64,000 nt of DNA, from NCBI GenBank assembly GCA_029210565.1, contig JARGFQ010000017.1:2798-66797 (forward strand). The letters run 5' to 3'. This document shows, one piece after another, positions 4,601 to 52,006 of this stretch (positions are counted from its first letter, which is position 1; each line of letters begins with the position of its first letter). The notes under the pieces were generated by a model. That model made no database searches and had not been told where the DNA came from. It saw only the letters and a list, made by a program, of their open reading frames with translations. The position numbers and the translations under genes were made by a program. Origin of the DNA: Bacteroidales bacterium (GTDB lineage: Bacteria > Bacteroidota > Bacteroidia > Bacteroidales > VadinHA17).

Positions 4601-6525
4601 AACCTGGTGATCTCCTTTATAGCTTTCCATACCTGCTGTATCTCCTTGATTGAAAGCTTGGTCTGATTCAGAAGGATGAAGTGTTTGTTCAGGTCTTCCT
4701 CGTTATAAAGGACGAAACAATCAGCTACTATGTTTTCATCCCGGCCTGCCCTGCCTGCTTCCTGTATGTAGTTCTCGAGAGAGTCGGATATCTCATAGTG
4801 CACCACCATGCCCACATCCTTTTTGTCGACACCCATTCCGAAGGCAGAGGTAGCAACCATGACTGAAACATCACCTGAGATGAAAGCTTCCTGGTTGGCT
4901 GTTTTTTCATTCACATCCATCCGGCCATGGTATGGTTTGGAATTCAAACCATCTTTGGTCAGCCGTTCTGCCAGCTGGTATGCCTTTCGCGTCCTTGAGA
5001 CATATATGATGGCCGGACAATTCCTCTCTTCAATCAGAGCCCTCAACGCCTGATACTTTTCTTCTTCGTTTCCTTTTTCAAAAACCTTATACTGGAGGTT
5101 TGTCCTGGATACTTTTGATTCAAAAACTACGAGATCAAGTGAGAGCTTTTCGCTGAAGTAGTTGCGGATATCATCAATAACCTGAGGCTTTGCCGTTGCC
5201 GTGAAGCATGATACCGGAATTTCTTCCGTGAGGTTTTTTTTCTCCTGAATGGACCTGATGAAATCAGCAATATACAGATAGTCGACCCTGAAATCCTGTC
5301 CCCATGCCGATAGACAATGCGCCTCATCGACAACAAAACGGACGATCTTTCTTCCAAGGAGAAGTCGTTCTATTGTACGGGAGCGCAGCGATTCGGGTGC
5401 GATGTAGAGAAGAGAGGCTGAGCCATCCTCGACCCTCTCAAAGGATTTTGCCCTTTCAATCGGGTCGAGCAAACCGTTAATCGTAACTGCGCGTGTGATA
5501 CCGGCTTTATCCAGGTTGTCCACCTGGTCTTTCATCAGTGATTGCAGGGGAGAGATAACCACTGTCAGTCCCTGTGCATTGTCGCCGCTCATCAGGGCAG
5601 GTACCTGGAATGCAAGCGACTTCCCGCCACCGGTGGGAAACACCGCGAGAAGGGACTTATTGTCAAGCGCAGCCCTTACAGCCTTCTCCTGCAGTGGTTC
5701 ACCTCCGAAAGTTTTATACGAATCAAAGCCGAAATATCTTTTCAGCCCCCTGTGTACATCCAAAGCATTGTTGCAATAGGTGCAGCCGCTTAAACAGGGT
5801 CTGTTTCGCAAGCGGAACATTATCTGTTCGACTTCAGGGTAGTTTTTCATGACCCATGGCGGAGTGACAGATCTTTTTTCGGGGTGACGGATGAAAGAGT
5901 CAATGAGAGAAAGACAATAAGCAAGTGCAACCGGTTGTGTTTCAATTACTCCTGCGAGGTCAGCCTGTTCGCACATTTCAGTTTCAAATTTCCTCCGAAT
6001 CAGTTTTTCAGGATCTGTCTCAGCACTTTTATATCCGATGAATCGAAAAAAGGCTTGAAACTCCGGTTTGTTATTTAGCAGGAGACAGAAGATCTGTTTA
6101 AGGGTTTCATTAGTCTGTTTGAAATGGGTAACCTCGTTATAGAACAGATCTCTGGCCTTGATGGAATCATTCAGGGGGTTGTTGGTGTCATCCGATTGCA
6201 GCTTATCGTCTTTCAGAAGTGCATGATAAGGCTTTGAAGGGAAGAGCAAAGGTGAAAGAAAGAGAGTGTCAATGATGTTTGAAGATTCTATTCCCGCTTC
6301 GGCCAATGTCTTGCCGATATATTTAATGTCGTGTTTTAGAATGTTATGTCCGCATACGAATTTTGTGCCGGCAAGAAAACTGATGAACTCCGTCACAGAG
6401 CCTTTATGGAAGGTGCCGCCATCGCCTCTGATACTTCCGATGTCAATTATCTTCAGGCTTTTTGGGTCAATTTCTGTGTCAACGAATGCAACAGGAATCA
6501 TTTCTTGCGGATATTCTTTTATCAT
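1687..6525 (-). CDS. Triple-fusion DEDDh exonuclease + RecQ (SF2) helicase + UvrD/PcrA-type (SF1) helicase, 1612 aa
   Basis: Exonuclease: FVDTEID and GHNILKHDIKY. RecQ: PTGGGKSLAFQVPAL, VVDEAHCLSAWGQDFRVDY, TSAFGMGVDKKDV, QEAGRAGRD. UvrD: AAGPGSGKT, VLVIDEAQDMDEDEF, TIHKAKGKEFDNVFL, LYVAMTRAKRNL. All lie in one uninterrupted frame. Confidence 0.9.
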   Translation of the reverse strand: MIKEYPQEMIPVAFVDTEIDPKSLKIIDIGSIRGDGGTFHKGSVTEFISFLAGTKFVCGHNILKHDIKYIGKTLAEAGIESSNIIDTLFLSPLLFPSKPYHALLKDDKLQSDDTNNPLNDSIKARDLFYNEVTHFKQTNETLKQIFCLLLNNKPEFQAFFRFIGYKSAETDPEKLIRRKFETEMCEQADLAGVIETQPVALAYCLSLIDSFIRHPEKRSVTPPWVMKNYPEVEQIMFRLRNRPCLSGCTYCNNALDVHRGLKRYFGFDSYKTFGGEPLQEKAVRAALDNKSLLAVFPTGGGKSLAFQVPALMSGDNAQGLTVVISPLQSLMKDQVDNLDKAGITRAVTINGLLDPIERAKSFERVEDGSASLLYIAPESLRSRTIERLLLGRKIVRFVVDEAHCLSAWGQDFRVDYLYIADFIRSIQEKKNLTEEIPVSCFTATAKPQVIDDIRNYFSEKLSLDLVVFESKVSRTNLQYKVFEKGNEEEKYQALRALIEERNCPAIIYVSRTRKAYQLAERLTKDGLNSKPYHGRMDVNEKTANQEAFISGDVSVMVATSAFGMGVDKKDVGMVVHYEISDSLENYIQEAGRAGRDENIVADCFVLYNEEDLNKHFILLNQTKLSIKEIQQVWKAIKEITRFRSSVSNSALEIARKAGWDDSVYEIETRVKTAIAALEDAGYLKRGQNMPRIFANSILSRNAQEAIEKIYASSRFNERQKQQAVRIIRKLFSSKSRKHATGEAAESRIDYISDHLGIVKEEVINIVNLLREEKILADAKDLTAFIRRGEYRNRSLNIVESFSKIEQCLVQAIDEQEKTFQLKELNEAAEAQGCDGSNVSRIKTVINFWAIKNWIKRKNLEFSKNHVSIVSLHPREMLIERVRKRSDLARFVVEFLYEKSNRDLSEEDVGKEEVLAEFSVLELKTEYGRQQGLFQTEVSLEEIEDTLFWLSRIDAIKIEGGFLVVYNSLTVERLEQDNRKRYTVEDYHSLNRFYENKVQQIHIVGEYARKMLSDYRDALQFVEDYFRLNYPSFLHKYFRGRQDDMARSLTPAKFRQLFGELSPAQLNIIKDNVAQNIVVAAGPGSGKTRLLVHKLASLLLMEDVKHEQLLMLTFSRAAATEFKKRLISLVGNAANFIEIKTFHSYCFDLLGKVGNLEKSDDILKKTVEKIKNKEVEASRITKTVLVIDEAQDMDEDEFSLIAALIEHNEEMRVIAVGDDDQNIFEFRGSSSRFLEQFIRVHQAARYELIDNFRSKSNLVAFTNQFVTGISHRLKSTPIVARQPDNGKIKLVRHDNGNLIVPFVQDLLETELSGTTCALTRTNDEALQITGLLLRNGMPAKLIQSNDGFNLFNLDEIRYFLSQQGIAGNIVNITDEAWENAKRALAERCRRSTKYELCRNLIRDFETANPKMKYKSDLEIFIRESKLEDFYGENGETILVSTIHKAKGKEFDNVFLMLEDFNPATDEAKRLLYVAMTRAKRNLTIHLNSDLLDTLSAGNMEKVLNREIHSPAAEVAMQPGFRDVWLDYFINRQHLVNKLTGGDSLIANGEECLNSEGQSVLKYSQQLKKQLSELKDKGYDLKSAKVNFIVHWTKEETGQEAKIILPELFFERNR

Positions 6526-39978: not shown

Positions 39979-40066
39979 GTTGGATTTGAGTTAAGCCAGG
40001 ACCAAAGTTAACGAACAAATTAACAGGGGAGTCCCTGCACACAGGAAATATTAAAACTCTAAAGAT

Positions 40067-41269
40067 CTATCTGCGCCTGAAATTTCTCCTGCCAGCCCCC
40101 GGGCGTGGAGGACGGTGAGCGGAGGTGTCGGCGTGGCTGCTGGCAATGAAGTCGGGCAGCGGAGCCCTGAAGACCTGGTAACCGATCAGTTTTTCTATTC
40201 GTTGAAGTTTGTACATCTCGGCATTTGTGACGAGGGTGATGGCCACGCCTGTGGTCTCTGCACGGGCGGTGCGGCCCACGCGGTGAACGTAATCCTCCGC
40301 GTCTGACGGCACGTCGTAGTTTACCACCAGGTTGATATCCTTGATGTCGATGCCACGGCTCAGGACGTCGGTTGCCACCAGCACGCGGGTGCGCCGTGAG
40401 CGGAACCGCAGCAGCGTCTCCTCACGCTGTTTCTGTTCGAGGTCAGACGATATGCCTTCTACGGCAAAGTCGCGCGATCTCAGTCCGCGAACGATCTCGT
40501 GAACCTTTTTCTTGGTGGAGCTGAATATGAGTATGCTGTTGTATTCGGGCTTGTCGGCTATCAGGCTGTTCAGCAGCGGCAGCTTCTGGTTCTCCTCCAG
40601 CAGATAGACAGCCTGCAGCACCCCCTCAGCCGGCTTTGACATCTCCAGGGCTATCTCCACCGGGTTCTTCATGATCTGTTTTGAGAGCGACCGGATCCGG
40701 GGTGGCATGGTGGCGCTGAACATGAGTGTCTGACGCTTTTTTGGCACGAATGAGATGATGCGGATGATATCGTCATAAAAGCCGATGTCAAGCATGCGGT
40801 CCGCCTCGTCGAGCACGAGTACCTCTATCTCGTTGAACTTCACATAGCCAAGATTGAGGTGTGATATCAGCCTGCCGGGGGTGGCAACGATGATGTCGGC
40901 TCCCTTTGAGAGAGCCTCCCTCTCCTGGTCCCAGGCGCTGCCCTCACCGCCGCCGTAGACAGCCAGGGAGGTTATGTTCAGCGTGTAGGCCAGCCCCTGT
41001 ATATGCTGGTCTATCTGCATGGCCAGCTCACGTGTCGGGACGAGTATCAGTGTGTGGGTATGGGAGGGGCGCCTGTCGGCTATCTCATTCATCACCGGCA
41101 GGAGGTAAGCTGCGGTCTTGCCTGTGCCTGTCTGGGCGCAGGCAATCAGGTCGTTGCCCTCCATGATTACCGGTATGGCCTTCTCCTGTATGGGGGTGGT
41201 CTCCCTGAAACCCATGTAATCTATCGAATCAAGAAGTTCGGGGTTCAGGTCCAGCTCTTCAAATATCAT
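40067..41269 (-). CDS. DEAD-box RNA helicase
   Basis: AQTGTGKTAAY, PTRELA, VLDEADRMLD, SAT, ARGIDI, HRVGRTAR, and a basic C-terminal tail. Confidence 0.9.
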   Translation of the reverse strand: MIFEELDLNPELLDSIDYMGFRETTPIQEKAIPVIMEGNDLIACAQTGTGKTAAYLLPVMNEIADRRPSHTHTLILVPTRELAMQIDQHIQGLAYTLNITSLAVYGGGEGSAWDQEREALSKGADIIVATPGRLISHLNLGYVKFNEIEVLVLDEADRMLDIGFYDDIIRIISFVPKKRQTLMFSATMPPRIRSLSKQIMKNPVEIALEMSKPAEGVLQAVYLLEENQKLPLLNSLIADKPEYNSILIFSSTKKKVHEIVRGLRSRDFAVEGISSDLEQKQREETLLRFRSRRTRVLVATDVLSRGIDIKDINLVVNYDVPSDAEDYVHRVGRTARAETTGVAITLVTNAEMYKLQRIEKLIGYQVFRAPLPDFIASSHADTSAHRPPRPGAGRRNFRRR

Positions 41270-41470
41270 TTATGTAATTCTCTTTTATGTTTATTGCCGG
41301 TGGCGGAGTCAGCCTTTTCACCCATTTGACGGGTGCGGCTGACGAAGCCTTTTTTCTCCGTCAGCAGACGGATTTGTTTGGCGGTGCAAAAGTACACAAA
41401 TTATTGACATTTAAAGGCGGAGCAGGTTAACAAATAGAGGCTGGCGCGATCGGGAGGGTATTAATAAAGA

Positions 41471-41500
41471 GGAGCGCAGAGTTTAAAGTCTCTGCGCTCC
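41471..41500 (-). terminator. Hairpin downstream of the 41535-42872 gene
   Basis: GGAGCGCAGAG / CTCTGCGCTCC form perfect 11-bp arms with an 8-nt loop, 35 nt after the stop codon. The following T-tract is only moderate. Confidence 0.5.
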
Positions 41501-41534
41501 TGGGGATATATGGTGCTCCGTGAGCTATGTGCCG

Positions 41535-42872
41535 TTATCTGCGCCTTGCCGGTGCGGCTGCCTCTGAGCTGCTGCTGCTTCTCGCAGGTGCGCTGCTTAC
41601 GCTGCTCTTTTCTACAGGTGCGCTGTAGCTGCTCCTGGTGTTGCTGCTACTGCTGGTGCTCCTTGAGGGTGCGCTGCTGACGCTGCTGGAGCTACTCCTG
41701 GCCGGTGCGCTGTAGCTGCTCCTTTCGGGTGCGGTTGCAGCTTCCCTGCGGATGACCTCTGCCCTGTCAGGGGCGGAAGGCCTGGTCACTGTCGTGCTTT
41801 TCACTTCAGCCGGATTCCTCCGGTCGGTTGCTGCAGCCTGACTGTTCACGCTCTCACGACTTCTGCTGACGGCCTCGCGGCTTCTGCTGACTTCCTCACG
41901 ACTCCTTGTAGCGGCATCCGGACTCCTGCGGTCGCTGCTGACAGTCGACTGCGTCGGCACCCTTGCTGCCTGATCAGCGGCGCTCCTTCTGCTGTCTCCG
42001 GAGATAACTGCACTGCGACTGTCGCGGCTTGCATATACCTTCCTGTAGAGCTCCTCACCGTCTCTCCTGGATTCAGGACGCGTGTAAGTCTGCTTGTAGT
42101 GACCCTCCGTCTTCCTGTGTTCCACATTCTTTGAATAGTGGCGCACGCTGGTGTAGTAGAAGTCGTTGTAGTAGTGATGCACGAGGTGGTTCCAGTGATG
42201 GTAGTAGGTGTAGTAGTGAGGGTACCAGTTGTAGTGGTATCCGTAGTAGTGGTGCCAGTACCAGGGGCTCCAGGGCTTCCAGTAGGCAGGCCAGTATCCC
42301 CAGTACCATCCTGAGTGCCATGCCACGTAGCTGGGCATGAACATCCAGTCAAGGACCGGCCACGAGAGATCGTAGTAGTATACGTTGCCGACGTAGATCA
42401 CATCGTCATAGTAGAGAGGATCACCCTGATAGCCGGGATTGGGTCTGTTGACCTTCGGTTCTATCACGTAGTTACGGCCGTAGAGCATCTCGTCGCCGAT
42501 AAGCTGTATCCGTACCTTGTTTTTGTTCTTGCGCTCGACGATAAAGACAGCCACATCCTGAAAGTCGTTCCTTCCGAGCACTGCCCTTAATACTATGGTG
42601 TGTATCTTCCCGTCCACATAGTCGGTGACCGTTATGTAGTCGATGAAGTTGTCGCCATTGAGATCGAGGTTATTCACCCGGGAGTCACTGGCATTTAGAT
42701 TCCTTTCGAACTCCTCAAGTGTCTTTGACTCCTGGAAGAGGTTCATCACGGCGTAGAGGTTCATGTTGTCGCCCGGGAGACCCAGATACTCCTCAGGCCA
42801 GTCCTGTCCGCGGACTATCGCCCCTGCTGCTACCAGGACTGCGAGGATCGATGTGATAATTAACTTTTTCAT
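41535..42872 (-). CDS. Secreted protein, paralog A: Ca-loop N-domain + W/Y/H-rich segment + Ser/Arg-rich tail
   Basis: Signal peptide, NNLDLNGDNFIDY (DxNxDGxxD-like loop), WYWGYWPAYWKPWSPWYWHHYYGYHYNWYPHYYTYYHHWNH, then about 170 aa of S/R/A-rich low complexity. The N-terminal ~300 aa align along their length with the 46814-48451 product. Confidence 0.8.
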   Translation of the reverse strand: MKKLIITSILAVLVAAGAIVRGQDWPEEYLGLPGDNMNLYAVMNLFQESKTLEEFERNLNASDSRVNNLDLNGDNFIDYITVTDYVDGKIHTIVLRAVLGRNDFQDVAVFIVERKNKNKVRIQLIGDEMLYGRNYVIEPKVNRPNPGYQGDPLYYDDVIYVGNVYYYDLSWPVLDWMFMPSYVAWHSGWYWGYWPAYWKPWSPWYWHHYYGYHYNWYPHYYTYYHHWNHLVHHYYNDFYYTSVRHYSKNVEHRKTEGHYKQTYTRPESRRDGEELYRKVYASRDSRSAVISGDSRRSAADQAARVPTQSTVSSDRRSPDAATRSREEVSRSREAVSRSRESVNSQAAATDRRNPAEVKSTTVTRPSAPDRAEVIRREAATAPERSSYSAPARSSSSSVSSAPSRSTSSSSNTRSSYSAPVEKSSVSSAPARSSSSSEAAAPARRR

Positions 42873-43092
42873 CTCTTTAAATTTATCTGAAGAATTGGCT
42901 CTTCACCTGTAATAATGCAAAGGGCGTGCCAAACTACCTCATATGCCCATAAGTTGGGAGTTTGAGCATGTTTTTAATAAGATGTGTGATATATTACGGT
43001 CCATGGCTCCGGCTGGCACTTCCGACCGGCAGTCCCGGCTGCCCCGGGACTGACAGTAACGGGTGGCGAAGCAGGAAAACAGGCTCATGGAT

Positions 43093-43154
43093 CAGGGTTC
43101 AGAGTACAGGGTCAGGGTACAGTGTTCAGGGCATAAGTCGCAGTGTACAGAGTG
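43093..43154. repeat. Degenerate heptanucleotide tandem array (CAGNGTN, about 9 units)
   Basis: cagggtt cagagta cagggt(c) agggta cagtgtt cagggca taagtcg cagtgta cagagtg, read directly from the sequence. Confidence 0.6.
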
Positions 43155-43206
43155 TTGTTATGCACGTCGGCTTTTCGTATCTTGCGGAGGTAAAAATGAA
43201 TGAGAT

Positions 43207-43914
43207 ATGAAAGCAAAAGCTATAATTTTGGTTCTGATGATTCTGCTGGCAGGCAGCCAGGCAGAAGGGCAGAAGAGGGAAAAACTGATAACAGTTGCAG
43301 GTACGGTCACTGATATCGAGATGTCTCCGGTAGCCGGTGCATTGATTGTGATAGACTTGCAGGATTCGGGTACCAAAACACGTAAAAACGGAACCTATAA
43401 AATAAAGGTCAGACCGGATGTCAGGAGCGTAGGGGTCTATACATCCAACATGGGGTCGGTAGTGACAGTGTTTGAGGGTCAGCAGAAAATTGATTTTGTA
43501 CTTGACGGAGCGGAGGCAATGGTGAATTTCGCTCCGGTGATTCGTGAAGGCGATACGAAGGTCGACATTGGATACGGCACGGCTAAGAAAAAGGACGTCA
43601 ACACTGATGTTGGTTATATAGACGGCCAGACTGTCGACAACGCATCCTACTCGAACATATATGATATGATCCAGGGCAAGGTGCCGGGAGTTGATGTTGT
43701 TGGCAATAAGATCACAATCAGGGGAGTAGGCTCACTCATGCTCAGCTCTGATCCCCTCTTTGTCGTTGACGGAGTAGCCGTTAGCTCAATAGACAACATC
43801 AATCCCCGCGAGGTCAAGTCGATATCAGTGCTAAAAGGCGCCAGTGCTGCCATTTACGGCACCAGGGGTGCCAACGGGGTCATCCTTATTACCCTGATTG
43901 GAACAAACAGGTAA
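43207..43914 (+). CDS. CarboxypepD_reg-like + TonB-dependent-receptor Plug domains only (no barrel)
   Basis: Signal peptide, TVAGTVTD...NGTYKIKV, then IDGQ...IQGKVPGV...IRG...PLFVVDG...I.SISVLKGASAAIYGTRGANGVILIT. The frame ends where the SusC-type barrel would begin. Confidence 0.8.
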   Translation: MKAKAIILVLMILLAGSQAEGQKREKLITVAGTVTDIEMSPVAGALIVIDLQDSGTKTRKNGTYKIKVRPDVRSVGVYTSNMGSVVTVFEGQQKIDFVLDGAEAMVNFAPVIREGDTKVDIGYGTAKKKDVNTDVGYIDGQTVDNASYSNIYDMIQGKVPGVDVVGNKITIRGVGSLMLSSDPLFVVDGVAVSSIDNINPREVKSISVLKGASAAIYGTRGANGVILITLIGTNR

Positions 43915-43978
43915 AGAGACCTGTCATTTGACGAGCGGTACAAAGCAGTCAGGTTCGGCTGGAGAACTCACGCAACTG

Positions 43979-44926
43979 TTATTTTATACCTGCGCGCAAC
44001 AGCTTAAGGTTGGTCTCCAGCCCGTCAAGCCAGATCATTGACCATGCCACGGGACTGAACACCAACATCTGCTTCGTCCATTCACCGGGTCCGGCATCAG
44101 GGTAATCCATATACTCAAATATCACCGGGACTGCTTTTGCGAGCTTCTCATTACCGGCTTTTGTCTCAAGCTCCCTGATAAGGTCTTTCAATCCGGACTC
44201 AAGAGCGAGGTCGGGCGTTGGTTCATCCTTTTCCCAAATTCTGGCTGCGAAGGCTACGCCTGTCGACTCCAGCCTTGGAAAATTTAGGGGATCACGGTTC
44301 CAGTCGTTCTCTGTGATTCCCTCAGCAGCAAAAATACGCGACTGATAACCGTCAACCACACCGATCAGGTTATCAATCTTCTGAGCTACAGCATCCTGTC
44401 CGGCAGAGGCAGGTATCCCGTCGAGCACAGTCTCAATCCTGTTGTAGTTTCGTGACAGGTTAAGGCTGTCATCGATCCTTTCCTTCGATACATTCAATGA
44501 TAGCAGGACGGAAAATACCGATATTCCCGAAAGGAGGAACAGTACAAAAACCGTGTTGTGGATGCTGAAGTTTTTGTTCCTGGCCGTTACAGCCAGGAAA
44601 ACAGGAAGGAACACCACATAGGGGAATGGCAGGGCGATCATAAGCAGCTTGCCCGCACCGGGCCAGTGCTGGATCTTGAACAGCATGCTGCCAAACACTA
44701 CAAGGCAGGTCAGCCATGTCACGATGTACAATAGCAGGTTCTGCCTGTTGCCTTCAGCCCTGTAATGGTTGGTGAGGGCAAGGGGGAGGAAGAGAAATAT
44801 CAGCATCAGCATCCCGAGGGTCAGCATGATGCCTGCTCCCGGGAAGTGGTTCAACTTAAAGATGCCTCCCATGAATACAATCATGGTGGTGATAAGTCCG
44901 GTTATATAAATTTTGTTTTTCATCAT
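43979..44926 (-). CDS. Membrane protein with two GldL-like FK(I/L)xH(W/F)PGAG hairpins and a soluble C-terminal domain
   Basis: FKLNHFPGAGIML and FKIQHWPGAGKLL, each followed by a second helix. About 165 aa of non-membrane C-terminus. Begins 15 nt downstream of the preceding gene. Confidence 0.75.
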   Translation of the reverse strand: MMKNKIYITGLITTMIVFMGGIFKLNHFPGAGIMLTLGMLMLIFLFLPLALTNHYRAEGNRQNLLLYIVTWLTCLVVFGSMLFKIQHWPGAGKLLMIALPFPYVVFLPVFLAVTARNKNFSIHNTVFVLFLLSGISVFSVLLSLNVSKERIDDSLNLSRNYNRIETVLDGIPASAGQDAVAQKIDNLIGVVDGYQSRIFAAEGITENDWNRDPLNFPRLESTGVAFAARIWEKDEPTPDLALESGLKDLIRELETKAGNEKLAKAVPVIFEYMDYPDAGPGEWTKQMLVFSPVAWSMIWLDGLETNLKLLRAGIK

Positions 44927-44941
44927 TTTCTGTTTAACCTG

Positions 44942-46297
44942 TTATTGATTTTTCATGGCAGATGAGAAAGCAAGGGATTCTGCTGTCAGAATACCGGCTT
45001 TCATCAGGTCCAGCATATGCAGGCCTGACATAAGGGATATTCTTTCACGCCCTGAAACTGTTTCCGGCAGGTAGGCCAAAGGATCAAGGAGTTCTTCTAA
45101 CTGTGCGGCATCCCCTTCCGGTAATAGTCCCGACAGGTATCCGGAGTACTCTCTCAGGGCTTCGCTCAGTTCATTGCGGGCAGCGCTGCCGTCCGTCAGA
45201 AATTCACTGTAGGGCCCGGGACTGAATGCATCACCCTCAGAGGCGTCAGTCATCTTTTCCCCGATACCATCCAGGAGATCAAGAAGAGGGGTTGTTTTAG
45301 AGTTGATCTCCGCAAGTGCAGGCTTCAACAATGTGTCTCTGCAGTTATTGATTATAGCCTGGTTTTCCGAGAGTTTATAATTTATCAACTCCTGCTGTGC
45401 TTTCTGCTGTACAAAATAGCCCCCCTCATAATTTCTCTGAACGTTAAGGCTTATAAGCAACGAAGGTATCACGATTGCGAGTGCCCCGACGACCATATAG
45501 ATGAAGGCGGAGCTGACGTGATCATCACTCTTCCAGGTGAGGCGGGTGTACCATGGCAGAACCACAAAGAAGATCAGGGCCAGTCCAACCGACAGGAGGA
45601 GTGTGGCAAGGGGCCAGTGCTGTATCTTGAAGAGCAGTCCTGCCATATATGCTGTCATGCCCAGTGCACCAAGAATATATACCATCCTTTTGGAGCGGTT
45701 ATCCTGATTCTTCAGTTTGGCCGCCAGCAGTGCCGGCAGGAACAACAGTGTTCCTGAGGCCAATGCGAGGCTGAGGACAATTCCTGACCCGGGCCAGTGC
45801 TGTATTTTGAAGACGACGCCTGCGATGAACAGCATCGCGGCGATGAATGCTGTTATGTAAAGCATCACTCTCTTCCCACTGTGCGTCTCCTTCCAGAGCA
45901 CCGTAAGTGCCGAAGGCATGAAAATAAAAGCCAGAGCGAGGGCACCGAGAATCATTATGATGCCCGCCCCGGGCCAGTGCATGATCTTGAACAACGAGGC
46001 AAAGCCAAGCAGGACAGTGCCTGCAATGGCTGAAATCTTCATAGTGTTTTTCATCTTTCTGTATTTAGTGTCTACTGCATATAGTGTCTCTTCCTGTATC
46101 TCGCGGAGCCTTCGCGAGCCCAGTTTCCTTCTAACAGCCTGGTATGCCTCTGAGAAACTCAATCCTCTCTGCATCTCACTCTCGACATCACAGCATATGT
46201 GATCCGTCAGCTCATCCCGAAGGTGCGAAAAGGAAATCTCCTCCCGGACGACATCGCGACGAATCACCTCAATGTTCTGCAGGGTCAGTTCATGCAT
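44942..46297 (-). CDS. PadR-coupled membrane protein: N-terminal helical 'prefix' domain + three GldL-like hairpins + soluble C-terminal domain
   Basis: LRDELTDHICCDVESEMQRGLSFSEAYQAVRRKLG resembles the helical prefix found on membrane partners of PadR regulators. Hairpins: FKIMHWPGAG, FKIQHWPGSG, FKIQHWPLAT. The start overlaps the PadR stop (ATGCATGA). Confidence 0.75.
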   Translation of the reverse strand: MHELTLQNIEVIRRDVVREEISFSHLRDELTDHICCDVESEMQRGLSFSEAYQAVRRKLGSRRLREIQEETLYAVDTKYRKMKNTMKISAIAGTVLLGFASLFKIMHWPGAGIIMILGALALAFIFMPSALTVLWKETHSGKRVMLYITAFIAAMLFIAGVVFKIQHWPGSGIVLSLALASGTLLFLPALLAAKLKNQDNRSKRMVYILGALGMTAYMAGLLFKIQHWPLATLLLSVGLALIFFVVLPWYTRLTWKSDDHVSSAFIYMVVGALAIVIPSLLISLNVQRNYEGGYFVQQKAQQELINYKLSENQAIINNCRDTLLKPALAEINSKTTPLLDLLDGIGEKMTDASEGDAFSPGPYSEFLTDGSAARNELSEALREYSGYLSGLLPEGDAAQLEELLDPLAYLPETVSGRERISLMSGLHMLDLMKAGILTAESLAFSSAMKNQ

Positions 46298-46640
46298 GGT
46301 TAAGACCTGGCTGAGGATTTACAATGTTCTGGAGAGATTCGATGAACTCCTTCATCTCCCTGACTTTTTCCGCCACAACAGACTCTCCCTTGTCGGTGAG
46401 GCTGTAGTAGACGCGTATGCGATTGTTGTAGTTCTCCGACTCGGTGACCAGCACTCCTTCGTTCTCCAGCTTGTGTAGTATAGGGTAGAGGGCGCCGTAT
46501 GTGAGCTTTATCTGCCCGGCAGTAAGCTCTTCAACCTTTCGGGTGATCTCATAGCCATACATGCGGCCGTTCTCCTTCAGCAACTTCAGTACTATGGTCT
46601 TCAGTGAACCTTTGATAAGATCGGTGGATATCATTTTCAT
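46290..46640 (-). CDS. PadR family transcriptional regulator
   Basis: LKTIVLKLLKENGRMYGYEITRKVEELTAGQIKLTYGALYPILHKLENEGVL is the canonical PadR winged helix. Confidence 0.9.
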   Translation of the reverse strand: MKMISTDLIKGSLKTIVLKLLKENGRMYGYEITRKVEELTAGQIKLTYGALYPILHKLENEGVLVTESENYNNRIRVYYSLTDKGESVVAEKVREMKEFIESLQNIVNPQPGLNHA

Positions 46641-46704
46641 ATATTTAAGTAACTTATATATTGCAAATATATTATATTAATTAATAAAAATATAATTATG
46701 GGGA

Positions 46705-46737
46705 ATAAAAAAAGCGCAGGGTGTTTTTCCCTGCGCT
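46705..46737 (-). terminator. Rho-independent terminator after paralog B
   Basis: On the minus strand: AGCGCAGGG-aaaaaca-CCCTGCGCT followed by TTTTTTTAT. Lies 77 nt after the stop at 46814. Confidence 0.7.
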
Positions 46738-46813
46738 TAGAGTTTATAATCTGTGCTCTTCCTGCTACCTTGCCCTGGTGCTCCGGAGCAGAGGCGGCCT
46801 GAGCTCCTTGCCT

Positions 46814-48451
46814 TTACCTTCTGGATGAGCGGCTGCTGCTTTCTGAGCTCTTCGAGCTTTTGGAGCTGCTGCTCTTTGAGGAGGTTCCGCTGCTGCGGCT
46901 GTTGCCGCTGCTCCTTGAGACTGATCCGCTGCTTCTTCCCTGGCTGCTGCTGCGCGATGAGACGCTGCTGCCTTTTGATGAGACATTGCTGCTGCGGCTC
47001 TGCGACCTGGTGGCAGGGGCTGATGACCTCTGAGAGACGGAAGGAGATGACTTTTGAGACACCGACTGTCTTGAGGACTGCGACCTCTGCACTGAGCTCT
47101 GCGACCTGGGCGCCGATGACTGCGACCTGCTTACCGATGACTGAGACCTCTGTGTTGAGCGCTGTGACCTTGTGGCTGTCGACTGTGACCTGCTCACCGG
47201 GGCCTGTGACCTCTGCACCGAGCTCTGCGACCTGGGTGCTGTGGACTGAGATCTCGGAGTCGTTGTGCTCCTTGAGCTGGAGGTCGTGGCAGATCTCTGT
47301 GATGAGGTTGCAGGAGCACTCTTGACTGCCGAGGATGATGACCTGCGGTTCAGATCTCCACTCTGTGAGGAGGCCGACCCGGTGGTGCTTCTGTTCTGCA
47401 CTGCCGTTGATGACCTGCGGTTTGCATCACCGCTCTGGGCTGCTCCTGTCCTGGTGGTACTCCTGCTCTGTACTGCAGAAGATGATCTGCGGGATTCGCC
47501 ATTCTGTCCTGAAACCTGGCTGCCGGAGCTGCGCGAGCTTGTGGCAGATGAACTTCTCCTCTGGCTCTCGGATGATGCTGCCGGGCGGGCGGAGGTGCTG
47601 CGCGAGCCGTGAGTGCTGGAGTAGAGAGCCTCGCCGTCACGCCTCATCTCGGGACGAGAGTAGGTTTTCTTGTAGTGTCCTTCAGTTATCCGTCGTGAAA
47701 CATTGGGAGAGTATGCCCTGACACTCTTGTAGTAATAGTCGTTGTAGCGATGATACCTCGGACGGTCCCAGTAGCGGTAGTGCGCGTAGTAGTGAGGGTA
47801 CCAGTGCGAGTGATATCCGTAGTAGAAGTGCCAGTAGTAGGGTCTCCAGGGCCTCCAGTAAACCGGGTAGTAACCCCAGTACCATGATGAGCGCCAGCTG
47901 ACGTAGTAAGGATTGTATATGAACCTGATCACCGGCCAGGCAGCGACTTCATAATATGTGGTAGTTACCACGGTGACATTGTCTCTGTAGACTGTCCTGC
48001 CTCTGTAGCCGGGATTAGGTGTTTCTGCATATATGGGTTCAACGATGTAGTTTCTTCCGTAAAGCGCCTCATCGCCGATGAGCTGTATCTGCACCGACCC
48101 GTTGCGGAACTTCTCCACGGTGAAGACTGCCACATCCTGGTATTCGTTGCGGTCGAGGGCTACACGCAATACGATGTTGTGAACATTGCCGTCGACATAG
48201 TCGGAGACGGTCAGGTAATCAACCATGTTGTCACCGTTAAGGTCGAGGTTGTTGATCCGGGAGTTCTCGTCGTTGAGGTTCCTCTCGAATGCTTCGAGGG
48301 TCTCAGACTCCTGGAAAAGCTTCATCACTGCGTAGAGATTCAGATTGTCACCCGGGAGACCCAAGTACTCCTCCGGATAGTCCTGTGCCGTGACTGTCGT
48401 CGCTGAGGCTATCAGGATTGCGAGGATCGATGTGTAGATTAAATTTTTCAT
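46814..48451 (-). CDS. Secreted protein, paralog B: Ca-loop N-domain + W/Y/H-rich segment + long Ser/Arg-rich repeat tail
   Basis: Start taken at MKNLIYTSIL (signal peptide). NNLDLNGDNMVDY, WYWGYYPVYWRPWRPYYWHFYYGYHSHWYPHYYAHYRYW, then about 260 aa of S/R/Q/T-rich repeats (..RSQSS..). Confidence 0.8.
   Translation of the reverse strand: MKNLIYTSILAILIASATTVTAQDYPEEYLGLPGDNLNLYAVMKLFQESETLEAFERNLNDENSRINNLDLNGDNMVDYLTVSDYVDGNVHNIVLRVALDRNEYQDVAVFTVEKFRNGSVQIQLIGDEALYGRNYIVEPIYAETPNPGYRGRTVYRDNVTVVTTTYYEVAAWPVIRFIYNPYYVSWRSSWYWGYYPVYWRPWRPYYWHFYYGYHSHWYPHYYAHYRYWDRPRYHRYNDYYYKSVRAYSPNVSRRITEGHYKKTYSRPEMRRDGEALYSSTHGSRSTSARPAASSESQRRSSSATSSRSSGSQVSGQNGESRRSSSAVQSRSTTRTGAAQSGDANRRSSTAVQNRSTTGSASSQSGDLNRRSSSSAVKSAPATSSQRSATTSSSRSTTTPRSQSTAPRSQSSVQRSQAPVSRSQSTATRSQRSTQRSQSSVSRSQSSAPRSQSSVQRSQSSRQSVSQKSSPSVSQRSSAPATRSQSRSSNVSSKGSSVSSRSSSQGRSSGSVSRSSGNSRSSGTSSKSSSSKSSKSSESSSRSSRR
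47078..47266. repeat. Nine consecutive 21-nt (7-aa) tandem repeats inside paralog B
   Basis: CTG(C/T/A)GA(C/T)CT-initiated units start at 47078, 47099, 47120, 47141, 47162, 47183, 47204, 47225 and 47246. They encode xxxRSQS-type heptads. Confidence 0.85.
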
Positions 48452-48719
48452 CTCTTTAAACTTTTTGGAAGAACTGTCTCTTCGGTTAATGAAATTCAAA
48501 CATTATGCCAAAGATTCTTTTGAAAGCAGTAGAGAACAGGCAATAGGCAGTAGTGTGCTGATATGAGTACATTCATGAACAACGACTCGGAAGGCGTTAT
48601 AGTGTTGTAGGCTGGCGGGAAATACAAGATAACCATATGCCGTAGAGCCTGCCCCGATAGCCGCATGGCATATCGGGGCATTATGGTATTGTAGCGATAC
48701 GGGGCAAAATGATTGATCC

Positions 48720-49688
48720 TCAGAAAATCTTCAGGAAGGCAGAAAACATGACTACGAACCCCTTCGGTCCGGGGTAGAGGGGGTCAGAATACATCGGGAA
48801 AACATAGCTGATATCCGCCTCCAGAGACATGAAAGGCAGATTAAACGATACCGGCACCCCGAATTCCATCTCTATCATGTCGAATTTATCTGAATAGACG
48901 GTGGTGGTGGTCGGGACTTCGGTGGTAGTAGTGGTAGTAGTTGTAGTTGTGGTGGTTGTTGTTCCGGTTGATCCCTGACCCTGTCCCGAGCCGGGTCCCT
49001 GTCCCATGCCGAAGCCTGATGTTCCCGAAATAGTAACCGGTGTGACCAGCGTCTGCGTCGTGGTTATCAACTCCGTCCCCTCCATAATGCTTGCTGTGGT
49101 GAGGTCGCCGAACAGAAGATTGGCGTAGGGTCCGAATGAGATAGTGGCTTTTCCCTTGAAGAAGGACGGTGTCTCGAAATATCTTGAGTTTTTTACCTGG
49201 AAATAAGCAGGCGGTTCTCTCATCACGAAAGCGCCATATGATAATTCTGTGTAGAGTATCCTCCAGTCGATACCCAGTGTAAGGTCGGCATAGTTGAAAT
49301 TTCTGAAGAGAGTGTCGGTTAGTTCAGGTTTGACCATATACCTGGACAGACCTGCGGAGATGTCAAACCATGAATTGAAATCATGACGGTAGGCCATTGA
49401 GGCGCTGTAGAAGGAGGGAGCCGATTGCTCAAGTCCCGGCAGATAGAAGGCTGCGCCCGTCAGGCTCAGCTCACCACCAATAAGATATGAAAGTGCACCG
49501 TACCCGAAAGGCAGGTCACGTGAGATGGTTGAACCGAGATAGATCATGTTGCTTCCGTAACCCGAACCGGTATAGAGAGAATGGTTATCCTTCTGCGAGT
49601 TGGCCTGCAGTGTGTCACCCTGTGCAACTGCGTTCAGCGGCAGCAGCAGAAGCAACAGACCGGAAAATATAAGGCGGAAAACTTGCAT
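48720..49688 (-). CDS. Putative outer-membrane protein with internal Gly/Ser-rich linker and poly-Thr tract
   Basis: Signal peptide MQVFRLIFSGLLLLLLPLNAVAQ, beta-strand-like pattern, GQGPGSGQGQGSTG(T)14EVPTTTT insert, and C-terminal ...FSAFLKIF. Confidence 0.6.
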   Translation of the reverse strand: MQVFRLIFSGLLLLLLPLNAVAQGDTLQANSQKDNHSLYTGSGYGSNMIYLGSTISRDLPFGYGALSYLIGGELSLTGAAFYLPGLEQSAPSFYSASMAYRHDFNSWFDISAGLSRYMVKPELTDTLFRNFNYADLTLGIDWRILYTELSYGAFVMREPPAYFQVKNSRYFETPSFFKGKATISFGPYANLLFGDLTTASIMEGTELITTTQTLVTPVTISGTSGFGMGQGPGSGQGQGSTGTTTTTTTTTTTTTTEVPTTTTVYSDKFDMIEMEFGVPVSFNLPFMSLEADISYVFPMYSDPLYPGPKGFVVMFSAFLKIF

Positions 49689-49997
49689 CTCACTTCTCAA
49701 TAATATGGCACAAAGGTACTCTTGAAAAATGAACAAATAATGAAGAAATGTAAAGAATCAGTTCATCTTTGGGTGTTCCAATATACCTTTACAATAAATT
49801 TAACCGCGATGAAATTTGAATGATCAGCAACTCACAATAGGATATGATCAAATTATTTCATGCAAGTTCTGTTCGACCGATGGTTCAAAAATAAAATAAT
49901 CGAATGAAACTTACATGAGCAGTTACTCACAAAGGAAATGATTATTTTTCTTTATATAAGTTCCATTAGACCAATAAAATAATAATCAAATAATCTA

Positions 49998-50570
49998 ATG
50001 AAAACAATTGCAATAATATCATCAAGCGTAAGGAGTGGCCGCAACAGCCACAGGGTTGCGCTTTATTTCAGCGACTACCTTGAGGAGAATAATATAGCGA
50101 AAGCTGATATTGTTGATCTGGAGGAGTATAATTTTCCGCTCTTTGATGAACGGCTGCGCCTGCAGAAAGATCCTTCTCCCGGGGCATTGGAGTTTGCGGC
50201 GAGGATCAGGGATGCCGACGGAGTGATAATAGTTACGCCCGAGTATAACGGCGGCTATCCCGGCAGCCTGAAGAATGTTGTTGACCTTCTTTATGATGAG
50301 TGGCGAAAGAAACCTGTTGCCATATCCACCGTCTCTGACGGTCCTTTTGGCGGCACGCAGGTCATTACGTCGATTCAGTTTTCTTTGTGGAAGATTGGTG
50401 CCTGGACTGTCCCGGCAATGTTCCCTGTACCAGGGGTTACCGAGGCTTTTGATGAGGAGGGAAAACCTGCAGACAGGTCAGCAGTGGATAAACGCGCTGC
50501 GAGGTTCATCAACGAGCTGATCTGGTGCATTGATGCCACCGAGCTGATGGCCGCCCGCCCGTCCTCTTAG
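49998..50570 (+). CDS. NADPH-dependent FMN reductase family protein
   Basis: IAIISSSVRSGRNSHRVA...ADGVIIVTPEYNGGYPGSLKN. Confidence 0.85.
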   Translation: MKTIAIISSSVRSGRNSHRVALYFSDYLEENNIAKADIVDLEEYNFPLFDERLRLQKDPSPGALEFAARIRDADGVIIVTPEYNGGYPGSLKNVVDLLYDEWRKKPVAISTVSDGPFGGTQVITSIQFSLWKIGAWTVPAMFPVPGVTEAFDEEGKPADRSAVDKRAARFINELIWCIDATELMAARPSS

Positions 50571-50791
50571 TCGTTCGCTTTCGCTTGCGGCTGCTCTTCC
50601 TTTTCCGGCTGTTCCTCCGGTGGTTCGGAGGTGATGTTTCCGAACTTGTCGACGTAGGCGATCATGTTATCAAGACCCCCACCCGGCGAGTTTTCCTTAC
50701 GGTACTGCTTCTTCTTTTCCTTTTCTCTTCTTTTCTTGAGACGCTTTTCGGTCTTCTGCTTTTTGATGTAACTGTTGTTCGGTCCTGCCAT
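50567..50791 (-). CDS. Small highly basic/acidic bipartite protein downstream of the DEAD-box helicase
   Basis: 74 aa with a Lys/Arg-rich N-half and Glu/Pro-rich C-half. Begins 12 nt downstream of the helicase gene on the same strand. Confidence 0.45.
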   Translation of the reverse strand: MAGPNNSYIKKQKTEKRLKKRREKEKKKQYRKENSPGGGLDNMIAYVDKFGNITSEPPEEQPEKEEQPQAKAND

Positions 50792-50803
50792 ATGCTTCCT
50801 GTG

Positions 50804-52006
50804 TTAATTAACGAAAGTCAGCGCCTTGCCGCTGGCGCCTGCCCTGCCTGTACGGCCTATCCGGTGAATATAACTCTCCATGTCCTTCGGTGCCTGGAAG
50901 TTGATCACATGCGAGACATCTGCAATATCCAGTCCGCGTGCCGCAACGTCAGTTGCCACCAGCACCTTAATCTTACGATTCCTGAATGATTCCAGCGCCT
51001 TGATGCGGTAGTTCTGCGACTTGTCGCCGTGGATCTCATCTGCTGTGATTCCTGCCCGGCGGAGATCTCTGCAGATACGGCTTACTCCCCGCTTGGTGTC
51101 GGCAAAGATCAGCACCTTTTCAAACGACTGGTCCCTCACCATATTAAGAAGAATGTCAATTTTCCTCTCGCCTTCCCCTACGGTGATAATATCCTGGTCG
51201 ATATTATCGGCGCTGACATTCTCATTCCTCACACGGACCTCAAAGGGGTCATTCATGAGGCTGCTTATCAGTGCTTTCTGACTCTTGTCCTCGGTGGCTG
51301 AGAAGAGGATGGTCTGATTGCGGTTGCTCATGCTGTCTACCAGCCTCCTGATCTCTTCAGCAAAGCCCATGTCCAGCAGCCTGTCGAACTCATCAAGTAC
51401 CAGTATGCTGAACCTGTCAAGGTTGAGTGCGCCCTGGCGCACCATATCGGCTATCCTTCCCGGTGTGCCGATGACTATCTGTCCCGGACGCCGCAGTTTG
51501 TCAATGTCAACCCTGACGCTGGTGCCTCCTATAAGGCATGAGCTGAAGAGCTTAAGCCCGAAGGCGATGCTCCTGAACTCCTTGTCTATCTGCAGTGCCA
51601 GCTCACGTGTAGGCGAGACTACCAGCACGTTGCTGCTGGAATCCCTGCGAAGGAAGTTATGTATCAGCGGTATGAGATAGGCCCCGGTTTTGCCCGTGCC
51701 GGTCTGCGCCAGACCCATCAGGTTACGACCACTAAGGATGGCCTCAATGGTCCTGTCCTGTATCTCGGTGGGTTTCTCGTATCCTTTTTTCTGAAGATTG
51801 AGGATGATGGCACTGTCAACAGGAAGTTCCGCGATCAGCCTCTCTGGCACGTATGCCACGAAGGAGGACGGGGATGCCTTCTTTATGAATTTGTTTGTAT
51901 TTACCGTGCCGGTGTTGATCTTCTTCCTGTTGTGTGTTCTTTTTATCGTGTCGTTATGACCTTGATTCTGTTTGCCCCTCCATCGGGGTTCTCTGTAATA
52001 TCCCAT
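50804..52006 (-). CDS. DEAD-box RNA helicase (second copy)
   Basis: AQTGTGKTGAY, PTRELA, VLDEFDRLLD, SAT, ARGLDI, HRIGRTGRAG. Confidence 0.9.
   Translation of the reverse strand: MGYYREPRWRGKQNQGHNDTIKRTHNRKKINTGTVNTNKFIKKASPSSFVAYVPERLIAELPVDSAIILNLQKKGYEKPTEIQDRTIEAILSGRNLMGLAQTGTGKTGAYLIPLIHNFLRRDSSSNVLVVSPTRELALQIDKEFRSIAFGLKLFSSCLIGGTSVRVDIDKLRRPGQIVIGTPGRIADMVRQGALNLDRFSILVLDEFDRLLDMGFAEEIRRLVDSMSNRNQTILFSATEDKSQKALISSLMNDPFEVRVRNENVSADNIDQDIITVGEGERKIDILLNMVRDQSFEKVLIFADTKRGVSRICRDLRRAGITADEIHGDKSQNYRIKALESFRNRKIKVLVATDVAARGLDIADVSHVINFQAPKDMESYIHRIGRTGRAGASGKALTFVN

Follow-up and report, generated by a model that had tools for sequence, protein, structure and literature searches.

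The window analysed here, a 64,000-nucleotide (nt) stretch of contig JARGFQ010000017.1 from a Bacteroidales bacterium, carries two paralogous genes for exported proteins, termed paralogue A and paralogue B. It is well supported that both are copies of a very large, unnamed exported superfamily of Bacteroidota, in which a folded core is followed by a polycationic tail. The original prediction had described two paralogous exported products, each with a signal peptide and N-terminal domain, a Trp/Tyr/His block and a Ser/Arg tail, and this description was confirmed by BLASTP (E = 2e-140) and by the sequences themselves. The two coding sequences and their parts are located as follows.

41535..42872 (− strand), coding sequence of paralogue A, 445 amino acids (aa), from the reading of open reading frames (ORFs); the diverged, lineage-specific copy.
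42807..42872 (− strand), signal peptide of A, residues 1-22, with Gln at +1, read from the sequence.
42018..42806 (− strand), predicted folded core of A, residues 23-285, from the AlphaFold2 model.
42636..42674 (− strand), calcium-type loop of A, NNLDLNGDNFIDY, residues 67-79, from family conservation.
42138..42362 (− strand), W/Y/H-rich segment of A, residues 171-245, from composition, conservation and a predicted local distance difference test (pLDDT) score of 93-98.
41538..42017 (− strand), putatively disordered, Ser/Arg-rich polycationic tail of A, residues 286-445, net charge +12, from composition.
41853-41903, 21-nt tandem repeat within the tail of A.
46814..48451 (− strand), coding sequence of paralogue B, 545 aa when read from the ATG (MKNLIY); it has the form usual in the family.
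47582..48385 (− strand), predicted folded core of B, residues 23-290, from alignment with A and composition.
48215-48253 (− strand), calcium-type loop of B.
47714-47938 (− strand), aromatic segment of B.
46817..47581 (− strand), Ser/Arg polycationic tail of B, residues 291-545, net charge +36, from composition.
47073-47248, 7-aa (21-nt) tandem repeats within the tail of B, 7.7 copies.

A TTG codon at 48499 merely lengthens the mechanical ORF of B. The BLASTP alignment of A and B showed 49% identity overall, was gapless over the first 140 residues and reached about 65% identity across the first 280 residues, whereas the tails were similar in composition alone. A is 100% identical to P0001, a hypothetical protein of a Bacteroidales metagenome-assembled genome (MAG). 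The signal-peptide junctions read VRG/QD in A and VTA/QD in B, and an (A/G/S)Q junction was present in 270 of 376 family members; Gln at +1 agrees with the Q-rule that applies in Bacteroidetes to substrates of signal peptidase I (PMC5837995). The acidic N-terminal segment of about 130 aa has a pI of 4.7 in A and 4.2 in B, and NNLDLNGDN(F/M)(I/V)DY occupies residues 67-79 of both. Residues 181-245 of A comprise 10 Trp, 18 Tyr and 11 His in 65 positions (60% W/Y/H), and residues 182-246 of B comprise 8 Trp, 21 Tyr and 6 His in 65 (54%); the aromatic string quoted in the original prediction corresponds to residues 189-229 of A. The tails are Ser/Arg-rich and positively charged, as had been claimed, with lengths of 160 aa in A (28% Ser, 16% Arg, net +12) and 255 aa in B (42% Ser, 14% Arg, net +36). 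Both proteins end in basic, putatively disordered tails terminating in RR, and neither contains a cysteine. An artefactual ORF or a low-complexity read-through was ruled out because hundreds of homologues, 400-560 aa long, keep the tail in frame as far as the stop codon.

A search with residues 1-287 of A retrieved 1828 clusters at 90% identity; all of those with a name were called 'hypothetical', and none carried a Pfam domain. A more distant query retrieved 3170 clusters at 90% identity, including proteins of Dyadobacter pollutisoli, Ferruginibacter and Lentimicrobiaceae, and an exhaustive HMMER search of 1.84 billion representatives returned 1191 clusters at 50% identity (E ≤ 0.001), 280 of them at E ≤ 1e-30. 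A relative is encoded in at least 579 GTDB species genomes, whose carriers include Bacteroidales MAGs, Prolixibacteraceae, Mariniphaga, Sunxiuqinia, Draconibacterium and Saccharicrinis, and the range of the family extends from Bacteroidales to Cytophagales, Chitinophagales and Sphingobacteriales. The B type is the common form, since 87 of the 95 family copies found in 85 loci were nearer to B than to A. A-like copies were limited to the five closest loci, and other lineages have local duplicates of their own. Of the two paralogues, B represents the ancestral type, and A arose from it as a duplicate specific to its lineage.

At the cut-offs of Pfam and NCBIfam, no model matched A, B or any of 79 diverse members. 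The sole recurrent weak signal lay at the loop, where EF-hand_5 was seen in 13 of the 79 members (best E = 0.055) and Dockerin_1 in three, all below threshold. Two candidate assignments were rejected. CarG-like (PF21955) was weak in 5 of the 79 members, and its two mapped matches span about 27 residues at the calcium loop. For DUF3300, the family of E. coli YacH and the UniRef label on a Dyadobacter homologue, the alignment of the family profile with YacH had an hhalign probability of 1%, and P0383 gave no DUF3300 match at E ≤ 1. Single-sequence and profile searches of the PDB matched ribosomal proteins only, in the tail only and through composition. The earlier statement that the two proteins belong to no characterised family therefore held at the Pfam and NCBIfam cut-offs and against the PDB, both by sequence and by fold (see below).

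The one suggestive profile was NF046077 ('surface polysaccharide biosynthesis protein'), to which A was aligned co-linearly over the whole N-domain (residues 35-146 to model positions 29-141 of 154, E = 0.001-0.003). This match would suit a glycan-handling envelope factor akin to M949_RS01915, the Riemerella anatipestifer protein of this profile, with a core that binds the sugars of lipopolysaccharide (LPS), capsule or peptidoglycan, and aromatic platforms are typical of sugar-binding sites. M949_RS01915, identified through a transposon mutant with altered LPS, is likewise an exported Bacteroidota protein of unassigned biochemistry, and its 237 aa would suit a short family member (PMC5294843). 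However, the score of A (17.5-18.7 bits) lies far below the 60-bit cut-off, and the match was not reproduced in B, in 78 diverse members of the long subfamily to which A and B belong or in 10 members of the lipoprotein subfamily described below (E ≤ 0.01). Membership in NF046077 was rejected because of this score and the confinement of the match to A, and any homology to it is putative. The phenotype in Riemerella is that of one transposon insertion mutant, and the authors ascribed it to reduced capD expression (PMC5294843). We consider this explanation of A and B quite unlikely.

The structure of A was modelled with AlphaFold2. With a shallow alignment, the model had a pLDDT of 72.8 and a predicted template modelling score (pTM) of 0.77; with 150 diverse sequences, these values rose to 90.5 and 0.85, and all five models reached at least 88.7 pLDDT. 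Residues ~30-140 were modelled as three short helices, the calcium-type loop and a five-strand meander, residues 143-170 as a variable linker of low confidence, and residues 171-285 as an irregular Trp/Pro segment followed by six helices (pLDDT 93-98). The aromatic block, which had been regarded as a distinct compositional part of the protein, is thus confidently predicted to form half of one folded domain together with the N-domain, rather than a low-complexity stretch or a separate module. Foldseek comparison of two models with the PDB gave no match at E ≤ 0.001; the best E value for the model of pLDDT 90.5 was 1.1, with template modelling scores of at most 0.18. Nothing significant was found in BFVD either (best E = 0.36). 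As Foldseek returned no solved structure, the core fold appears to be new relative to the PDB.

Both the block and the loop hold fixed positions across hundreds of homologues. In a homologue set at 30-60% identity, W171, P180, Y182, S187, P195 and W201 were kept in at least 90% of the sequences, and the family signature of the aromatic segment is WPxVxYxYxPxYxxWxSPWYWGYYPxYWxPWxPxYW. N67, N68, L69, D70, L71, D74, D78 and Y79 were kept in at least 90% of the family, and further near-invariant positions are the LGLPGDN start, E53, F55, E56, N60, H91, Q105, D106, Q123, G126, D127, Y131, G132, E138 and P139, besides the six positions of the aromatic half just named. Within the loop, D70, N72, D74 and D78 are invariant or nearly so and have the acidic-ligand spacing 1, 3, 5, 9 of a DxDxDG-type loop. 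The spacing D70-x-N72-x-D74-x-x-x-D78 is shared with the loops of FG-GAP/VCBS, dockerin and EF-hand proteins (DxNxDGxxD), and one source labels a homologue 'VCBS repeat-containing protein'. In contrast to these proteins, the family has a single loop in an unrelated alpha/beta domain, has no paired EF-hands, beta-propeller blades or dockerin duplication, and matches their profiles only below cut-off. In the lipoprotein subfamily, many of the polar conserved positions are lost while the loop, the glycines and an SPYHYGYYP motif are retained, a pattern that points to a function in structure or binding and away from an enzyme.

On the basis of composition, the original prediction had proposed metal binding as an alternative to polyanion binding. 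A His-rich, metal-binding periplasmic protein would fit the 11 His in the 65-residue block of A, the cation-efflux genes between the paralogues of one related locus (L005) and the location of an Aureibacter homologue near a P-type ATPase gene. The block of B, however, has only six His. H207 and H213 alone are conserved, among close homologues only, and no His of the block is kept family-wide or in the lipoprotein subfamily, so a conserved His-based metal-binding function is unlikely and this explanation is highly improbable for the proteins as a whole. Polyanion binding, the other half of the proposal, was retained as the most plausible reading.

Summed with the generally known values of the Wimley-White interfacial scale, the best 19-residue windows of the block reached -14.0 kcal/mol in A and -11.7 kcal/mol in B; such windows would partition very strongly into the membrane interface if they were exposed. 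Indolicidin, tritrpticin and the Trp-rich loop of puroindoline are Trp/Pro/Arg-rich membrane-active sequences, and the family resembles them in its YWRPWRPYYW and WKPWSPWYW pattern, in its interfacial partitioning and in the cationic segment that follows. This likeness is an analogy of mechanism and involves no homology. Those peptides are short and unstructured, whereas the family segment is conserved in position and predicted to lie within a folded domain of 260 aa.

The head and the tail of the proteins are of opposite charge throughout the family. Among 349 members, the head had a median net charge of -15 and was negative in 99.7%, and the tail, of median length 160 aa, had a median net charge of +19 and was positive in 99.7%, reaching at least +10 in 88%. 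Lys or Arg was the last residue in 80% of these members, and aromatic residues made up less than 1% of the tail. The composition of the tail, a stretch of 100-260 aa, depends on the lineage (S/R, K/T, P/R/T repeats or G/R). Orthologues were 73-96% identical in the core and 29-68% in the tail, with Arg steady at 12-17%. Loose modules of about 22 aa, centred on RRS(S/T)xxVxxR, were recognised in the tails, which lengthen through tandem repeats. As positive charge is kept while the sequence drifts, the disordered region is selected for charge and length rather than for sequence. In P0121 (464 aa), a hydrophobic repeat tail (AALSFKTAGFS, about nine copies) takes the place of the basic tail and may be a frameshifted repeat or a true variant.

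This conserved and extreme charge dipole would also suit a secreted matrix or adhesive protein, whose tail binds extracellular DNA, polyphosphate or acidic exopolysaccharide, whose Tyr/Trp and Arg residues mediate self-association or coacervation through cation-pi contacts, and whose acidic head associates with the basic tail of another molecule nearby. The compositional likeness of the tail profile to the RNA-binding tails of ribosomal proteins, the RGG/SR-like tails of the lipoprotein subfamily and the presence of a C-terminal Peptidase_S74 fibre-chaperone domain in one variant (see below) are in line with it. However, the aromatic residues are predicted by AlphaFold2 to sit in a confidently folded domain and not in a disordered sticker region, a C-terminal sorting domain for type IX secretion (T9SS; Por_Secre_tail type) was found in neither A nor B by Pfam and NCBIfam at E ≤ 1, and the surface-export signal is almost never present in the lipoprotein relatives. 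A matrix protein is a possibility that we regard as unlikely.

The lipoprotein relatives were recognised in IMG/VR contigs as shorter proteins. They carry a lipobox cysteine and share the loop; their block is a short SPYHYGYYP stretch, and their S/G/R tail terminates in RRR. When this subfamily served as the profile query, 2019 clusters were returned, among them some from Mucilaginibacter species and from a Chitinivibrionales MAG, and the long and lipoprotein subfamilies were aligned by hhalign with a probability of 100% (E = 5e-40) over 144 columns that include the aromatic motif. A lipobox was present in 92 of 120 lipoprotein-type members, and only 3 of the 120 carried two acidic residues at +2 to +6. 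An acidic stretch at these positions is the surface-export signal of Bacteroidetes lipoproteins, LES (PMC5080379); as it is nearly absent, the lipoprotein subfamily is predicted to face the periplasm.

In eight of the first nine lipoprotein-type loci, a conserved partner gene encoding 247-270 aa lies just downstream, and six of those loci also contain a PspA_IM30 gene. The partner protein has no signal peptide, carries an acidic linker and a C-terminal YYDPYYVSPxW motif followed by a hydrophobic end, and matches no family. The neighbourhood of PspA and partner was found in Mucilaginibacter paludis and in phage-like contigs. The lipoprotein, PspA_IM30 and the partner may form an undescribed three-gene module. 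The loci with PspA_IM30, the partner or both are the following.

L096, 6001-8503.
L097, 6001-8299.
L098, 6001-7753.
L090, 5851-7607.
L093 and L099.

Members of the family also occur in phages. A complete member of about 326 aa is encoded at 3947-4927 of locus L088 in LR756501.1, an uncultured phage genome of 735,411 bp, and also in LR756503.1; 735,411 bp is the largest genome reported by Al-Shayeb et al. (PMC7162821). Signal peptide, Tyr-rich block and basic N/Q/P/R tail are all present in this copy, whose N-domain shares 51% identity with that of A; an unrelated barrel-like ORF with a signal peptide follows it. Several lipoprotein-type copies, some of them with PspA, lie on phage-like contigs. 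In addition, a lipoprotein-type member at L091 6001-7185 carries a C-terminal Peptidase_S74 domain past its basic tail (E = 4.9e-12). Peptidase_S74 is an intramolecular chaperone domain of tail fibres.

The genes that separate A and B in the window were examined as well; the original prediction had put forward the whole block as a candidate envelope system. It had placed a plug-only gene and a padR operon between the paralogues, and Pfam and NCBIfam domains identified both of these. They and the two terminators lie at the following positions.

41470..41501 (− strand), intrinsic terminator past A, with a 12-bp stem containing 8 G-C pairs and a T-rich tract.
43207..43914 (+ strand), stand-alone CarboxypepD_reg and Plug protein, 235 aa, from Pfam/NCBIfam; a neighbour outside the family unit.
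43979..46640 (− strand), padR operon; a neighbour outside the family unit.
43979-44926 (− strand), 315-aa protein with two GldL_N hairpins.
44942-46297 (− strand), 451-aa protein with perm_prefix_1 and three GldL_N hairpins.
46290-46640 (− strand), PadR.
46712..46738 (− strand), intrinsic terminator past B, with a 10-bp stem followed by TTTTTATT; it parts B from padR.

If A and B formed one undescribed envelope system with the plug-only protein and the padR operon, all of these would be expected to travel together, and in the closest relatives they do: the gene set of DEAD helicase, FMN reductase, B, PadR, two GldL_N proteins, Plug, A, DEAD helicase and amine oxidase is repeated there, with inserted genes in L004 and L006. 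All of the products are also envelope-related. Across the 85 loci, however, PadR was found within 10 kb in only 11 and GldL_N proteins in 12-14, and every one of these loci falls in the lineage closest to the window, with a DEAD helicase that shares at least 80% identity with that of the window. The position of the cassette varies: L018 has it directly downstream, L013, L031 and L073 have it upstream, and in L010, L012, L055 and L075 it is 6-8 kb distant. In L005, the paralogue pair encloses a cation-efflux gene and others, and PadR is missing; three single-copy loci of other Bacteroidales have no cassette. In an unsupervised clustering of the ORFs within 6 kb in the 85 loci, each neighbour family was confined to about 25% of the loci at most. 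Within the window, A and B are followed by separate strong terminators, and padR has an upstream region of its own, with an AT-rich stretch between it and the terminator of B. Since A and B have their own terminators and the linkage to the cassette is rare and variable in order, the system reading is unsupported and we judge it very unlikely; the original prediction had itself named a lack of linkage to the cassette genes as a refutation. A and B are each independent transcription units, and their association with the cassette is local synteny only.

Other apparent neighbours were rejected as well. A neighbour cluster covering 26 loci was an antisense artefact of the low-complexity tail. Adjacency to a DEAD-box helicase was seen in 24 of the 85 loci, nearly all from the lineage of the window, and the three distant cases are about what chance would give; bracketing of the A...B region by helicase genes recurs in the closest relatives. 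A conserved outer-membrane-protein neighbour was dismissed, as the 338-aa protein upstream of B is unrelated to the barrel-like ORF beside the phage copy.

The padR cassette itself would fit a separate signalling operon of the HAAS-PadR type already described by Ravi et al., a winged helix-turn-helix (wHTH) pair in which a stand-alone PadR is encoded next to a multi-transmembrane protein with a short N-terminal helical domain (PMC11237479). PadR scored 70 bits against a cut-off of 27, and its gene overlaps the start of the gene for the 451-aa multi-transmembrane protein, whose putative N-terminal permease prefix would correspond to the helical domain; the perm_prefix_1 score is 22.9 bits, below the cut-off of 30. 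The 315-aa protein encoded next is a paralogue of the 451-aa protein. The cassette differs in that its transmembrane part consists of GldL_N hairpin repeats, a combination not listed in the accessible part of that account (PMC11237479). The FKIxHWPGAG motif pointed out in the original prediction corresponds to these hairpins. Against the GldL equivalog TIGR03513, the two membrane proteins scored 31.8 and 44.9 bits, under the cut-off of 68.3, and only the N-terminal transmembrane-hairpin module is common to them and GldL; the padR operon shows GldL rotor-type hairpins employed outside the T9SS motor. The Plug protein matched Plug with 60 bits and has a SusC/RagA N-terminal signature, and its ORF ends at 235 aa without the 22-strand beta-barrel of a TonB-dependent receptor. 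Since at least 14 related loci keep this ORF at the same 234-235 aa, with 56-83% identity, the gene is not a broken receptor.

Further features of the region were noted. Short tandem repeats with 13- and 20-nt units (CAGGGTTCAGAGTA) lie at 43092-43131, within the 334 bp that separate the divergent A and Plug genes, and an Rfam search of positions 40000-51000 at E ≤ 1 revealed no RNA element. A 338-aa protein with a signal peptide, encoded at 48720-49736 (− strand) and kept upstream of B in the closest relatives, has no family match and contains 14 consecutive threonines after a G/Q/S-rich stretch. DEAD-box helicase genes whose products have basic C-terminal ends, at 40067-41269 (− strand) and 50804-52006 (− strand), bracket the A...B region. 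At 1687-6525 (− strand), a 1612-aa protein fuses a DEAD/Helicase_C part (residues 277-595) to a UvrD-type helicase (residues 1060-1486).

The explanation that we favour, if tentatively, is that A and B are independent copies of a new exported family, acting as periplasmic proteins that bind anionic membrane or wall surfaces. We infer both the ligand and the compartment of A and B from sequence, and localisation, calcium binding and tail ligand are predictions for every member. The proteins would be exported by Sec, processed by signal peptidase I and then retained in the periplasm, which is the default location because a T9SS C-terminal domain is missing and the lipoprotein relatives have no surface signal. 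The polycationic tail could act as an electrostatic tether to an anionic surface, either the head groups of phospholipids and lipid A or peptidoglycan, a role suggested by the conservation of the polycation while its sequence is free. Further contacts, interfacial or with glycans, may come from the Trp-rich aromatic face of the core, and the acidic head, presumably calcium-bound, would be kept at the surface, where it would serve the structure of the envelope or its protection against stress. The only clue from gene context, the association of the lipoprotein subfamily with PspA/IM30, would point to membrane integrity as the process in which the family acts.

LpoA/LpoB, TonB and Lpp are envelope proteins that pair an anchor with a long disordered reach. 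The family would resemble them in its putative periplasmic site, in combining a folded domain with a long low-complexity segment able to span the periplasm and in including a lipoprotein-anchored subfamily. It differs from them in that sequence and fold are unrelated and in that its tail is C-terminal, polycationic and free-ended, rather than a linker between anchor and domain.

Several observations weigh against the tentatively favoured role at periplasmic surfaces. Among metagenome loci with at least 3 kb downstream of the lipoprotein gene, the partner was present in 10 of 30 and PspA in 6 of 30. No PspA or partner was found by tblastn in the window or in any long-subfamily locus examined, and the partner-type motif is absent from the window. 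The aromatic residues may, in the predicted fold, be buried as its core instead of being exposed, and the missing known surface-export signal leaves room for another secretion route or for release in vesicles.

A further-reaching version of this explanation is speculative, and we hold it to be unlikely. In it, the superfamily would consist of periplasmic 'charge-dipole' proteins with a new Trp/Tyr-rich fold, whose tail attaches them to the wall or to the outer side of the cytoplasmic membrane. A module for membrane repair that spans the envelope would have the lipoprotein subfamily as its periplasmic arm, along with cytoplasmic PspA/IM30 and the tail-anchored partner with its matching YYDPYYVSPxW motif, and huge Bacteroidota phages would carry the module to stabilise the envelope of their host.

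The novelty of the region thus lies in an undescribed superfamily with a fold unseen in the PDB, and the cassette is probably of a known kind. The superfamily is among the larger wholly anonymous protein families of Bacteroidota, with no domain model, solved relative or experiment to its name, and its core is unusual in that a confidently predicted fold includes a 65-residue stretch of which over half is Trp, Tyr or His. A domain model would end the splitting of its annotation across 'YgcG', 'VCBS repeat' and 'glycosyltransferase' labels. If the envelope-tether or the PspA-linked reading is true, the family would be a missing component, structural or stress-related, of an envelope that in Bacteroidota has no Lpp, and would identify a gene borrowed by huge phages.

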